A DNA stretch of 41,943 nt, taken from contig LRSL01000075.1 of assembly GCA_001563335.1 (NCBI GenBank), positions 1-41,943 of the forward strand. The letters are read 5' to 3'. The position numbers and the translations under genes were made by a program. This document shows positions 19,050 through 41,539 of this stretch, piece by piece; the stretch's first letter is position 1; the number at the start of each line of letters is the position of its first letter. The DNA is from Candidatus Thorarchaeota archaeon SMTZ1-45 (GTDB lineage Archaea; Asgardarchaeota; Thorarchaeia; Thorarchaeales; Thorarchaeaceae). Under the pieces are notes generated by a model. That model was not told the DNA's origin. It was given only the letters and a program-made list of their open reading frames with translations, and did no database searches.

Positions 19050-19125
19050 TGGTAGCCCCGCCAGGATTTGAACCTAGGTCCGGTGGGCCAGAACCACCGA
19101 TGCTGGACCACTACACCACGGGGCT
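19050..19125 (-). tRNA. tRNA-Gln(CUG), intronless, CCA encoded
   Basis: Acceptor AGCCCCG/CGGGGCT (A1-U72 as in archaeal Gln), anticodon arm GGTGG-TTCTGGC-CCACC, T-loop TTCAAAT, ACCA end. Confidence 0.97.
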
Positions 19126-37868: not shown

Positions 37869-39677
37869 CTAGTCTTTATTCTTCTCTTCTTCATCTAAAG
37901 CAAGTAACCGCTCAAGCTCAGCAAGCGTTTCACCATTAAGTGGGAGATACGAATCATCTTCCTTATCAATCCCCTCTACTTTGGTGGATGCAGTACCACC
38001 CACTGAACGGTCTAGAGGACCTAGAATGGTTTCAAGCTCTTCAAGTGATTCAGCATCAAGCTCTTCTGTATAATCAGGTTCATTTTCAAGAGGTATAACC
38101 TCATCACTCCCAATTGCTTGAAGTGCTGTGTCTAACTCCTCTTCTGATGCTTGTTCAATCTCTGTTGCTATGATATCATCAAAATCATCAGTTTCAAGAG
38201 CCTCAAAGATGATGTCCTTAGCCATCTTTATTGCATCTGTGTTCTCTTCAACTACAAGTTCTGGAGTTGTAACATCAATAGCTATCTCAGCGGTTTCAGG
38301 CGCAAATTCTGTTGACACTGGTTCAGGCGCAGCTTCAGCTCTAACTTCTTCGAGCTGAGAAGGCTCAACCACAATCTCTTCTTTTGGTTCAAAAGTTACC
38401 TCAGGTTCAGCAGTAACTTCCTCTTTGAATTCAACCTCAGGTATTGGTTCCAATACTGGTTCTGAATCTATTTGAATTCCTACCTCTCCTTGACCCTCTA
38501 TAATTTCAGGTATGGGGAAATCGATTTCCTCTGAAGCATCAGCCGCTACTTCTATTTCTTCCTCAATGATAGTTTCTTCTGTTACTTCTATATCTTCTTC
38601 AATAATCTCATACTCATCAAGATCTTCAATTACATGACCTTCCTCATCCACAAAGACCTCTTCAATGACTTCCACTGTTTCGTACTCTTCTTCTTCTTCG
38701 ATCTCTTCCTCTTCTTCTTCTACATATTTCTCTTCAAGTCCTGCTACTTCTTCAGCTTCAACTCTAGCTATCGCTTCCTCTGTAGCTACATCAGTGAATT
38801 TCAATAACTCAGAAGCAGGTAAATCAGGAAGAGCAACACCAACATATTGTGCTGCCGCTGTCATCAAGATGCGCAACATCTCATCTCGACGATCTTTGTC
38901 AATTGCTACCATTGGGTAGGTTGGAATCCCAAGAATCTTCTGAACAACTTCAGGTTTCATGGCATTGGGCTTGTCCTGTTTGTTCGCCATGGCAAAAACT
39001 GGAACTTTAGGAGCATCTCGTTTTATTAACTTGAGAATGTCCTTACTGATGATTACATTTCTTAGAGTTGAATCACATACTAAAAAGATAACATCTGCGC
39101 CATGAAAGTAAAAACGCCATAGAGTACGAAAACGCTCCTGACCAGCGAAGTCCCATAGGACCAATGAGTAGTTCCCAAAGCGAATATTCTCAACTGTTTC
39201 AAGATTCAATGCTATTGTTGGAACATACTGGAGAGGAGGTGTATCTCCTAGAAGGAGATGTAGCGTGGTAGTCTTACCAACACCACCCTCTCCCACAAGT
39301 GCAATCTTGAGTCTGGTTGTTACAGAGGGTTCTATGAGAGCGGCATAATTCTTAACTGCACCTTCAATGCCATGCTTTTTGAAGGTCTTTGTAATTGCCT
39401 TTATAGCCAGGTCTATCTTTTCATAGGTATTTGCTTCATCCTCGCCCTTATCAGTTACAAAGACAAGAACAGAATCTTCAATCCAATCTTTTCCAAGAAA
39501 CTTATGATCTCCAATAATCAAAGGAAGTTCTGAAACTTGGCCATGATCTGTTCTTAGTTCCTCCCTAGTGGATATGAACTCATTCAATGCATCTTCTTTC
39601 ACCCAGACTGGCCAGTATTGGGTTGTGGCGATTATTTGTCGTGTTGATATGCGAACGAGGAAGGTATTGTGAATCAC
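37869..39677 (-). CDS. Longin-like domain + Arf/Rab-like small GTPase + ~300-aa acidic tail
   Basis: GEGGVGKTT, YVPTI, WDFAGQERFRTLW, NKQD; N-terminal longin-like pattern; Glu-rich C-terminal half. Confidence 0.85.
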   Translation of the reverse strand: MIHNTFLVRISTRQIIATTQYWPVWVKEDALNEFISTREELRTDHGQVSELPLIIGDHKFLGKDWIEDSVLVFVTDKGEDEANTYEKIDLAIKAITKTFKKHGIEGAVKNYAALIEPSVTTRLKIALVGEGGVGKTTTLHLLLGDTPPLQYVPTIALNLETVENIRFGNYSLVLWDFAGQERFRTLWRFYFHGADVIFLVCDSTLRNVIISKDILKLIKRDAPKVPVFAMANKQDKPNAMKPEVVQKILGIPTYPMVAIDKDRRDEMLRILMTAAAQYVGVALPDLPASELLKFTDVATEEAIARVEAEEVAGLEEKYVEEEEEEIEEEEEYETVEVIEEVFVDEEGHVIEDLDEYEIIEEDIEVTEETIIEEEIEVAADASEEIDFPIPEIIEGQGEVGIQIDSEPVLEPIPEVEFKEEVTAEPEVTFEPKEEIVVEPSQLEEVRAEAAPEPVSTEFAPETAEIAIDVTTPELVVEENTDAIKMAKDIIFEALETDDFDDIIATEIEQASEEELDTALQAIGSDEVIPLENEPDYTEELDAESLEELETILGPLDRSVGGTASTKVEGIDKEDDSYLPLNGETLAELERLLALDEEEKNKD

Positions 39678-39817
39678 TTCAGCATCACCAAGTTCAATCA
39701 GAGCGGGACTCTAGGTTTCTGAAACCTTTTTGATAGTAAGTCAATCCTTTAGGTATAGATTAAGCTGTGCTGTGTGTATATTTTGATATTCTGTGTATCT
39801 ATCAGTGGCCATTCTGA

Positions 39818-40045
39818 GAAAAATGTTGGAGCGGGGGTCCGCCAACGCGAACCGTCCGCATCCGTGGAGCACTTCCTAACAGGATGCAAGGATAAAATTA
39901 CATGCGCAAGACATGCCCAACGGTGGGCAATAGGGACCTAGAACTCACTTTGGGACCGTGTTTGCTGCGAGTTCCTTGTTTCTTTCGAAACATGACGGGG
40001 GAAGTCCATGCACCCTTGTTACGAAGGTTCATTAGCTCGATGAAC
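39818..40045 (-). ncRNA. Candidate ~225-nt multi-hairpin RNA
   Basis: At least 7 tandem hairpins in a GC-richer island with AT-rich flanks. GAAA tetraloop and G-U pairs favour the minus strand. Ends in a U-tract. Confidence 0.6.
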
Positions 40046-40237
40046 AAAATACCATAAGAAGCTTTCTAGGTTTTTGCGGAATATGTCCTAATCGATTTTC
40101 ACTGATATTATTACAGAATCATCTAATGCAAATTGAAGAAATCATAGTGGTGTAAAAGATTTGATTTTTTCAGAAAGATTTCACTTCATACTCATTAACA
40201 TTTATACAATCTAAGTGCTGCAGATTTATACTATCGA

Positions 40238-41377
40238 TTATCGTGGAAAGTTGTCTCTGAGCAAACGCAGATGATGATGTACCATCTCCATCTGTTTAGG
40301 ATCATCAGGTGTCTTCTCAAGATCTGTGACAAGTGTCTGAAGGAAATATTCTGGGAAGAATAGTCTGACCCTAATATCATTTAGTAGAAACAACCATTTG
40401 TCATATTCTCCAGATGCACCTTTACGTCTCTTTTCAGAGATAATCCTGAACTTCTTGAGTGTCTGAATAGCAGACTTCAACTCTTTTGGTGGAATAGCAA
40501 GTGTCGCTTCTAGTTCAGAAATATTAACTGGTCTTCTTCTTAGCTCGCTTAGTGTATCATAGCAATCTGGATCAGCAAGCACTTGAGCAACAGATACTGT
40601 ATCCTCTGGTGTCTTTTGCCATTCTGTTAGGAATTCCAAAACCTCAGACTTGTATTCAGCAGCAAGCTCTGGATCTAATACACTGCTAGCTGCCTCCATA
40701 GCTATTAGTGGTGGAGCCCGGAAAACCTCAAGATCTTTGATCATAAAAACACAGGTTCTTCCTATCTCATCAACCCACTCAGTCTTAACAAGACCAAGTT
40801 CCTCAAATGGTGCAATGACTGAATCTACACTCACACTTGGCAATCCAGTGACCATTTTAAGCCATTCTTCGAGTTCCTCCTTAGAAATGCCGCCTTTCCA
40901 GAGCTTTGGAAATACAGCTCGAGAAACCTCATCTGAGAAAAGCCGTGCAAGACGTGATTCGTCTGTCATTCCTGCAAGTCTGATAATTCGACGGTACGTA
41001 TTATCGAGCTCAGTCTGTAGTTCAGCATCGGTCATAGCAACGACTGCATTTGTAAGTGGTGTGACGACTGAAGTGATAGCAGCTTCGTAGGTCTTAGGAT
41101 CTTCTGAAGGTGTTAGAAGAAGGGAAACACAATATTGTTCCTCTTCCCTGACAACTCCAGTATAGTAGGAAGCTACACCATATTCTTCGCCACCTATCCT
41201 AACACTTAATGATGAGAATCCAGCAGTGGCATCACCCATAGCATGTGATGTGAAAATACGCATGATCTCAGTGTTTAGATCTTCCCTATAATAGTCCGCA
41301 AAGTCCGCAGGAACTTTCGCCTTTAAGACAGCACCTATTTTTGAGTCCCAATCTATGAGCAGCATCGCAACGGGCAT
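40238..41377 (-). CDS. Longin/uDENN-like domain plus two winged-helix-like domains
   Basis: MLLIDWDSKIGAVLKAKVP uDENN-type start; ISKEELEEWL...PFEELGLV and VNISELE...IQTLKKFRII wHTH patterns. Confidence 0.65.
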   Translation of the reverse strand: MPVAMLLIDWDSKIGAVLKAKVPADFADYYREDLNTEIMRIFTSHAMGDATAGFSSLSVRIGGEEYGVASYYTGVVREEEQYCVSLLLTPSEDPKTYEAAITSVVTPLTNAVVAMTDAELQTELDNTYRRIIRLAGMTDESRLARLFSDEVSRAVFPKLWKGGISKEELEEWLKMVTGLPSVSVDSVIAPFEELGLVKTEWVDEIGRTCVFMIKDLEVFRAPPLIAMEAASSVLDPELAAEYKSEVLEFLTEWQKTPEDTVSVAQVLADPDCYDTLSELRRRPVNISELEATLAIPPKELKSAIQTLKKFRIISEKRRKGASGEYDKWLFLLNDIRVRLFFPEYFLQTLVTDLEKTPDDPKQMEMVHHHLRLLRDNFPR

Positions 41378-41539
41378 TTTTCTTCTCTCCGGGTCCCTAG
41401 AGTAAGGTTAGACAAAGCCAGATTGATTTAGGATGCAGGGGGCCAGCCTAAAAAACCTTGTCTTATTTGGTTCCGACTATTAGAATTTTCGACTTGTTCA
41501 GCGCTTTTTGGAGAAGAGTTTCACTATAAAATGAGGCAT

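Follow-up and report, generated by a model that had tools for sequence, protein, structure and literature searches.

The window analysed here is a stretch of 41,943 nt from Candidatus Thorarchaeota archaeon SMTZ1-45 (contig LRSL01000075.1, positions 1 to 41,943), in which the spacer between two minus-strand protein genes carries a conserved element of about 210 nt. The gene downstream of the element encodes a GTPase with a longin-like N-terminus, and the gene upstream encodes a 379-aa protein. We think it probable that the element is a single-copy, Thorarchaeaceae-specific gene for a structured non-coding RNA (ncRNA) of ~210 nt, which is transcribed from the minus strand, has its own promoter and acts in trans as a stand-alone regulator. 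The features of the locus, all on the minus strand, are listed below; BRE denotes the transcription factor B recognition element and CM a covariance model.

37869-39677, minus strand: GTPase gene, 602 aa, with an Arf/Roc/Ras-type GTPase domain at residues 121-259
39755..39802, minus strand: conserved block with AAATATACAC, between the RNA and the GTPase gene and outside the RNA
39819..40030, minus strand: putative RNA gene, ~210 nt; CM matches span the region in 61 homologous loci
40053..40070, minus strand: BRE/TATA-like box CCTAGAAAGCTTCTTATG, found upstream of 59/61 homologues
40238-41377, minus strand: gene of the 379-aa protein, without Pfam family
41387..41399, minus strand: candidate target in the 5' leader of the 379-aa gene, comprising UAGGGACC (41392-41399) and GGAG (41387-41390)

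The element differs in composition from the spacer beside it, with a G+C content of 0.51-0.52 over 39800-39999 against 0.27-0.31 over 40050-40249, which is A+T-rich. No open reading frame (ORF) of 60 aa or more overlaps 39818-40045, in agreement with the preliminary description of this DNA; the longest are 55, 51 and 49 aa. A small-ORF reading was rejected, as a 17-nt optional hairpin and further variable hairpins disrupt every frame. The window was scanned with the 4227 CMs of Rfam 15 at gathering score, and its sole match was a tRNA gene at 19053-19125 on the minus strand (RF00005, 52.4 bits), with nothing at the element. At E<=10 the region 39650-40260 gave six matches of 12-22 bits, none of them credible against gathering scores of 42-90, and the same models gave five weak matches on 15 homologous loci, zero of them at the RNA position. 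No Rfam ribozyme or riboswitch family matched the element, and ARAGORN found no tRNA or tmRNA gene in 39600-40300.

Two large structured RNAs of the genome were located elsewhere: the RNase P RNA (C11:6966-7304, 168.5 bits, RF00373) and the signal recognition particle (SRP) RNA (G000 C24:47149-47457, 85.5 bits, E 1.6e-19, RF01857). Neither of these models matches the element at E<=10. The score of the SRP RNA lies below the Rfam gathering score of 96.5, and standard annotation would therefore miss it. Several other resemblances were also discarded. On the plus strand, similarities to the CR-I region of RNase P/MRP RNA, to U6 snRNA and to a kink-turn had no Rfam match. The RNase P look-alike, GGAAGUCC, has lost its critical U in 10/15 same-genus sequences, and the GA pairs are not conserved. 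At the level of listings and abstracts, searches of the literature on Thorarchaeota and Asgard non-coding RNAs, small RNAs, covariation and transcriptomes turned up no paper on such an RNA. Judged by these models, the element is an RNA of no described family.

The element occurs once in the genome of the window. BLASTN matched it in 19/24 further congeneric genomes and in 0/16 genomes outside the genus. For a profile scan, 80 loci around the 379-aa gene were fetched; the scan of all stored loci returned 87 matches, representing 67 distinct sequences, and in every one of the 87 the element lies just downstream of the 379-aa gene. A 113-position core CM (R2), used alongside a trimmed genus model, detected it in 22/26 Thorarchaeaceae genomes and 11/14 genera, with one match per genome, and gave no match in 124 genomes of 26 other Asgard families. 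When the search filters were turned off, one extra genus was recovered at the syntenic site (G088, 33.8 bits), which brings the range to at least 12 genera. In the same filters-off scan, the syntenic stretches of G160 (Thorarchaeaceae) and G025 (sister family) gave no match at E<=1, G052 reached 10.6 bits only, and the G042 contig stops at the 379-aa gene. The suggestion in the preliminary description that this is a novel ncRNA is thus upheld on several sides: the element has no Rfam match, strong covariation, a single copy and a syntenic position, and its conservation among Asgard genomes falls within one family. Two syntenic copies lie on separate contigs of the metagenome-assembled genome (MAG) G010; they probably reflect a strain mixture, because the contamination estimate for this MAG is 7%.

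Covariation supports four helices, H1 to H4, in the aligned minus-strand sequences. In the comparative model, H1 encloses a junction that holds H2, H3 and an optional GAAA hairpin, and a separate 3' hairpin, H4, follows. The parts of the predicted RNA, again all on the minus strand, are given here from 5' to 3'; J denotes a junction between the helices named, and MFE the minimum free energy fold.

40005..40030, minus strand: 5' strand of H1, the long and irregular closing helix (sub-helices b, c and d)
39993..40004, minus strand: J1/2, single-stranded in MFE and consensus alike; contains the C-rich box CUUCCCCCGUCA
39977..39992, minus strand: optional hairpin with GAAA tetraloop, present in 5/15 same-genus sequences; a 17-nt indel, not a multiple of three
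39940..39975, minus strand: H2 hairpin (39975-39967 with 39948-39940), 99.7% of cells pair
39933..39941, minus strand: J2/3, with the second GGUCCC box (CUAGGUCCC), which gives the best predicted duplex with the 379-aa leader
39914..39929, minus strand: H3 hairpin, 93.3% of cells pair, 4/4 pairs with compensatory changes
39892..39910, minus strand: J3/1, with the near-invariant CUUGCGCAU followed by a U-rich tract
39867..39892, minus strand: 3' strand of H1, pairing with 40030-40005
39828..39863, minus strand: H4, 3' hairpin rich in G+C; 96.9% and 95.3% of cells paired
39819..39823, minus strand: U5 run, a possible terminator, weakly conserved

In the minus-strand alignment of 62 matches (R3), which was fitted to its own model so that its counts lean towards that model, compensatory changes are seen at 41/46 pairs, and the paired cells amount to 89.0%. 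In 500 shuffles this level was never reached, and sliding the partners left only 35-48% of cells paired. The sub-helices of H1 pair in 86.5-92.9% of cells, with compensatory changes at 17/17 pairs. Parts of H1 are wholly unlike in sequence between clades and keep their pairing, and the same is true of H3, where clades with wholly unlike sequences all form the hairpin. In genus g17, AACUC/GAGUU of H2 is replaced by AACCU/AGGUU. An invariant U in H4 is partnered alternately as G·U and A-U, and many relatives carry a cUUCGg arm inserted in this helix. RNAalifold, run on a plain MAFFT alignment of the genus, recovered H1b-d, H2 and H4 independently. The single-sequence MFE of 40030..39818 (minus) has the same architecture as the comparative model (-76.4 kcal/mol, z -3.36) and beats all but 1/200 shuffles. 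All-against-all column covariation on the MAFFT alignment was too noisy for use, and inspection by eye found no convincing alternative pairing of the kind expected of a riboswitch.

The boxes exposed between the helices, namely CUUCCCCCGUCA, the two GGUCCC boxes, CUUGCGCAU and the U-rich tract, are near-invariant and unpaired. Counts on boxes, promoter and tetraloops refer to 61 distinct homologues. CCCCGUC of J1/2 is found in 57/61; the H2 loop carries the invariant ACACGGUCCCAA at 39950-39961, with ACGGUCCC in 52/61; GUCCC occurs at least twice in 54/61, in boxes that are unpaired in both the MFE and the consensus; and CUUGCGCA of J3/1 is present in 55/61. The U-rich tract, AAUUUUAU at 39892-39899, is U-rich in all clades listed, its actual sequence varying, and the canonical Sm-site consensus is not conserved at this junction. 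That an Sm-like archaeal protein (SmAP) binds there is only a guess, with the tract as candidate site.

Eight stems had been drawn by eye in the preliminary description. Three of them recur across species: 39940-48/39967-75, which is H2; 39914-19/39924-29, which is H3; and 39977-82/39987-92, the GAAA hairpin, although the last is present in only 5/15 same-genus sequences. The stem 40027-32/40040-45 is a true 6-bp hairpin in the window that is variable elsewhere and falls between the promoter-like box and the proposed RNA start. The remaining four (40014-17/40024-27, 39991-96/40004-10, 39858-63/39882-87 and 39825-29/39842-46) found no support; their bases belong to H1, H4 or the conserved junctions, and the long-range H1 (40030-40005/39892-39867) and H4 (39863-39828) had been overlooked. 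GGUCCC does occur twice on the minus strand, at 39951-39956 and 39934-39939, as had been said, but the pseudoknot suggested between GGUCC and a 3' GGACC is not supported: this GGACC is part of H4, and in 7/15 same-genus sequences it is replaced by GAACC or GAGCC. An outermost helix, formed on the plus strand by GUGGA with UUCAC, was also rejected, being 53% Watson-Crick and pairing in 58.6% of cells on the minus strand; its sequence is probably located at or before the transcription start. In the genus member G022 (L014/L085), a segment of ~25 nt, GUGAAUCUUCAUGA, is duplicated at the 5' edge of H1.

The minus strand, which the preliminary description had implied, is very probably the RNA strand; wobbles, tetraloops and the pairing of each helix agree on it. 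Read on the plus strand, H4 contains 50 A·C cells against 8 G·U cells. The sub-helices behave likewise, with 23 against 1 in each of H4b and H4c, 18 against 6 in H1d and 21 against 10 in H1b. An invariant U is partnered by A in some sequences and by G in others, as expected of the minus strand. Pairing is also better on this strand in every robust helix (H4, 96.9%/95.3% vs 90.7%/89.2%; H3, 93.3% vs 85.2%), cUUCGg occurs in 15/61 homologues on the minus strand and in 0/61 on the plus strand, and the optional hairpin has its GAAA loop on the minus strand only. Of 44 divergent homologues, 29 score higher with the minus-strand CM (mean +1.2 bits). Some observations weigh on the other side of the strand assignment: the extra stem of the clades outside genus 1 changes an invariant U·G into C·A on the minus strand, the top pair of H2, read on the plus strand, includes 12 G·U cells and no A·C cell, and the plus-strand model scores higher in 15/44 homologues, in one clade by 1-7 bits.

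An RNA transcribed from the plus strand, divergent from the GTPase gene and ending at GGTTTTT 40069-40075, would have a TATA-like TATATTTT at 39778-39785 in front of it and, in the window's genus, a T5 run behind a conserved CATATGAAGCTTTCTAGG. Its structure covaries too: in an alignment of 58 homologues (R1), likewise fitted to its own model, 39/46 pairs are compensatory and 87.6% of cells pair, falling to 37-49% when slid by 1-3 columns, and the outermost helix shows 61 G·U against 6 A·C cells. We nevertheless consider this orientation highly improbable. A·C cells far exceed G·U cells in the well-aligned helices, the cUUCGg arms would read CCGAAG, the T5 run is confined to one genus, the outermost helix has the low Watson-Crick content given above, and the upstream block is better explained as a promoter of the GTPase gene. 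The full plus-strand model (R1, A1-A5; promoter at 39778-85, terminator at 40069-75) was accordingly set aside on the wobbles, the tetraloop census and the minus-strand model. Pairing of the CATATGAAGCTTTCTAGG tail on the plus strand had been compared as native against permuted duplex energies, which gave z -0.56 for the leader, -0.1 for J2/3, -0.74 for J3/4 and -2.1 for J4/2, where 7/500 permutations were as low. The question is moot if this box is read as the minus-strand promoter.

On the minus strand, we infer that the box at 40070-40053 is the BRE/TATA promoter of the RNA, because similar boxes stand at the RNase P RNA, the SRP RNA and the 379-aa gene. The box at the RNase P RNA of this genome reads TAGAAC..TTTTTATT and precedes it by ~24 nt; the boxes at the other two are of the TTTTTAGG type. 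Among homologues, the A/T-rich half of the box reads TTCATATG, TTCTTATG, ATTATATG or CTATATAT, behind a purine-rich AGAAAG. The distance from the box to the start of the model varies from 10 to 78 nt; where the helices were re-read by eye, the true H1 (or an extra 5' hairpin) was never less than ~17-24 nt from the box. The RNA would thus start near 40030, ~23 nt downstream of the box. Its 3' end may, with some uncertainty, be placed at the U5 run, ~39820, which is the UUUUU end that had been pointed out before.

Whether this RNA is a leader of the GTPase gene, as the preliminary description had offered as its second option, can be judged from the spacing of the two. The element lies on the GTPase gene's strand and, among the 54 loci with both, is 113-240 nt upstream of the GTPase start in 42/54. 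A strong hairpin, H4, followed by U5 in the window could then serve as terminator, and the conserved junction core resembles an aptamer, so that a cis-acting 5' leader of the riboswitch or attenuator kind would fit these loci. In the remainder the gap is longer, ~300-315 nt in 6/54 and 1,140-1,190 nt in 6/54. In the two loci of the latter group that were examined it is filled by a convergent GNAT acetyltransferase gene of 314-320 aa, and the RNA and its promoter box are retained, while a TATA-like ACATATACA adjoins the GTPase gene instead. The RNA therefore does not always lie in the 5' untranslated region of the gene it would regulate. Between RNA and GTPase gene, the separate TATA-like block at 39755-39802 is probably the GTPase promoter. 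H4 is moreover conserved in sequence, unlike typical terminator stems, the U-run is weak, and in the sister family a spacer of 127 nt without such an element separates the two protein genes. We regard the leader as unlikely, and a stand-alone RNA as the likelier arrangement, because the RNA persists where a GNAT gene intervenes between it and the GTPase gene. The two GNAT genes (L091:4556-5518 and L098:5151-6095, both on the minus strand) encode two-domain proteins (PF00583, E 3e-25 and 1e-20), and a gap of the same size is found in four further loci, L078, L089, L092 and L103.

The gene on the other side of the RNA offers a candidate target. Its leader reads ..CUCUAGGGACCCGGAGAGAAGAAAAAUG, in which UAGGGACC (41399-41392) is the exact complement of GGUCCCUA in J2/3. 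GGGAC immediately precedes the GGAG ribosome-binding site, at -18 to -21, in 64/75 distinct orthologous leaders, and it is absent from the sister-family locus without the RNA. Genome-wide, GGGAC-N1-2-GGAG is not enriched, occurring 28 times against 11-62 occurrences for ten control words; among the start regions of 4038 ORFs of at least 100 aa, GGGAC-N0-3-GGAG occurs in this leader only. When these 4038 regions of one genome were ranked by duplex energy, the 379-aa leader came 5th of 4038 for J2/3 (-18.3 kcal/mol, against a mean of -7.5 and an sd of 2.9); its ranks were 95 for the H2 loop and 1193 for J1/2. Allowing for three segments and two neighbouring genes, a rank this high has a probability of ~0.007 by chance, for a match that had been noticed before testing. 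In most loci a conserved GGTTTTTTAGG precedes the 379-aa start by ~70-80 nt (41430-41460 on the minus strand of the window). It is likely the TATA box of this gene, which would give a 5' leader of ~45 nt that contains the GGGAC box.

Under our preferred reading, the RNA would be transcribed from the minus strand, from ~40030 to ~39820, under the control of its own BRE/TATA-like promoter at 40070-40053. Its GGUCCC boxes, which lie exposed, would base-pair with the GGGAC box next to the Shine-Dalgarno GGAG of the 379-aa leader, and this pairing would tune translation of the 379-aa protein relative to that of the partner longin-Arf GTPase gene. The remaining fold may provide stability or a protein-binding surface, perhaps for SmAP at the U-rich tract. 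Among the mechanisms we can envisage, antisense control of the 379-aa gene is the likeliest, and we put it forward tentatively, as a possibility. A closely related version, in which an Lsm/SmAP-assisted riboregulator or small ribonucleoprotein (RNP) sets the ratio of 379-aa protein to GTPase by masking the ribosome-binding site of the first gene, seems doubtful to us. If such a scheme were true, the genes of the longin-like 379-aa protein and of the longin-Arf GTPase, which form a pair Asgard-wide, would have acquired a dedicated riboregulator between them in Thorarchaeaceae, and an archaeal forerunner of eukaryotic trafficking GTPase modules would thereby have gained a layer of RNA control.

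Several points tell against a stand-alone antisense regulator and have to be set beside the evidence for it. We infer the strand, both ends and the promoter alike from sequence comparison, and all of the genomes compared are MAGs. A run of T>=5 within 20 nt after H4 is found in 9/61 homologues, T>=4 in 24/61 and T>=3 in 38/61. The predicted core between RNA and target is of 6-8 bp only, was noticed post hoc and comes from one genome; covariation between RNA and target cannot be shown because the boxes of the RNA are invariant; and the flanks of the 6-bp core, read by eye, mismatch in many clades. GGGAC is lacking in 11/75 leaders, including those of the RNA-bearing L078 and L054. Finally, the fold is more elaborate and more conserved than simple antisense pairing needs, so that protein binding or another activity is a serious rival. 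The RNA could then be a protein-bound scaffold or a ribozyme, its complementarity to the leader being coincidental. Invariant junctions and H2 loop, covarying helices and hairpins that come and go are typical of RNP RNAs and ribozymes, size and multi-helix junction are like those of SRP and RNase P RNAs, and the complementarity to the target is short and was found post hoc. Yet the 379-aa family (112/151 Asgard genomes) extends far beyond the range of the RNA; no Rfam ribozyme matches; and chance would have to account for both the rank of 5/4038 of the adjacent gene and the missing box in the RNA-less family. We hold this alternative to be rather unlikely, more so than antisense control.

In working principle, the nearest analogues of the proposed regulator appear to be bacterial small RNAs (sRNAs) with C-rich boxes and archaeal sRNAs that bind leaders; it is a member of neither group, because no model matches. 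In the Firmicutes, sRNAs with C-rich motifs, such as RsaE/RoxS and RNAIII, carry several unpaired C-rich boxes that mask G-rich ribosome-binding sites. The Thorarchaeaceae RNA resembles these in having two or three unpaired UCCC-type boxes in loops and junctions, hence the two or more conserved, unpaired C-rich boxes expected of an sRNA with a C-rich seed. It also resembles them in its predicted pairing with G-rich sequence at the target mRNA's ribosome-binding site, and in being a stand-alone gene with its own putative promoter. It differs in being archaeal, in its ~210 nt, covarying four-helix architecture and several other invariant boxes, and in lacking sequence or CM similarity to them, none of the Rfam families of this kind having matched; its target, moreover, is only predicted. 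Most trans-acting sRNAs that bind leaders in archaea such as Methanosarcina, Haloferax and Sulfolobus are short, have little structure and are conserved no further than the genus. An intergenic position, a BRE/TATA promoter and a proposed masking of the ribosome-binding site are common to these and to the Thorarchaeaceae RNA, which is, by contrast, conserved over at least 12 genera with strong covariation.

Other known systems share parts of the design. Archaeal SRP RNA (RF01857) and RNase P RNA (RF00373) are of a similar size class, with a long closing helix that encloses two hairpins, and are single-copy with their own promoters, the promoter here resembling the region upstream of the genome's RNase P RNA; both, however, are found elsewhere in the genome and neither model matches here. 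Riboswitch and attenuator leaders likewise have a conserved junction core, a terminal G+C-rich hairpin with U residues and a same-strand gene downstream in most loci. Unlike them, the element has its own promoter box, a second promoter-like block behind it, a convergent gene in some genera and no Rfam riboswitch match. With RNAs bound by Sm/Lsm proteins (SmAP), it shares a single-stranded U-rich tract adjoining a helix and, in the window's genus, a U-rich 3' end, although the canonical Sm-site consensus is not conserved and binding is a guess.

The RNA, with its concrete consensus, could seed an Rfam family and improve the annotation of ~60 MAGs. It is a structured RNA found family-wide, with good support, inside a conserved gene pair of eukaryote-like trafficking components, and its target prediction is testable, offering a defined RNA and a defined assay for Asgard enrichments or heterologous systems.

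The two flanking genes are older than the element. The 379-aa family occurs in 112/151 Asgard genomes, with up to 9 matches per genome, a range far wider than that of the RNA, and the protein is 84-99% identical between Thorarchaeaceae genera. Its gene usually adjoins the longin-GTPase gene, also in the sister family, where the GTPase is 34% identical and the protein genes have no RNA element between them. The two genes look like a conserved Asgard gene pair. Because the 379-aa family is phylum-wide and the sister-family pair lacks the RNA, the RNA is, on this distribution, a later, Thorarchaeaceae-specific insertion into an older gene pair. The GTPase is built of three parts, namely a longin-like N-terminus (residues 1-118), an Arf/Roc-like G domain (121-259) and an acidic tail. 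The first part matches longin-type adaptor sigma and delta-COP folds with TM scores of 0.72-0.83, in keeping with the longin assignment made earlier for this gene, and the C-terminal tail is very long (~300 aa), of low complexity and rich in E, D and I.

Several genera carry repeated, partly palindromic CTGCGA/TCGCAG words in the stretch from the 379-aa gene's end to the promoter box of the RNA, for example CTGCGATTTCC ... CTGCGATAATTCC and TGCGAATATC ... GATATTCGCA. In the minus-strand sense they lie at L034:4205-4260, L081:4215-4300, L045:4190-4235 and L062:1745-1800, and the counterpart in the window, at ~40097-40150, is degenerate. These words may be candidate binding sites of a transcription factor.

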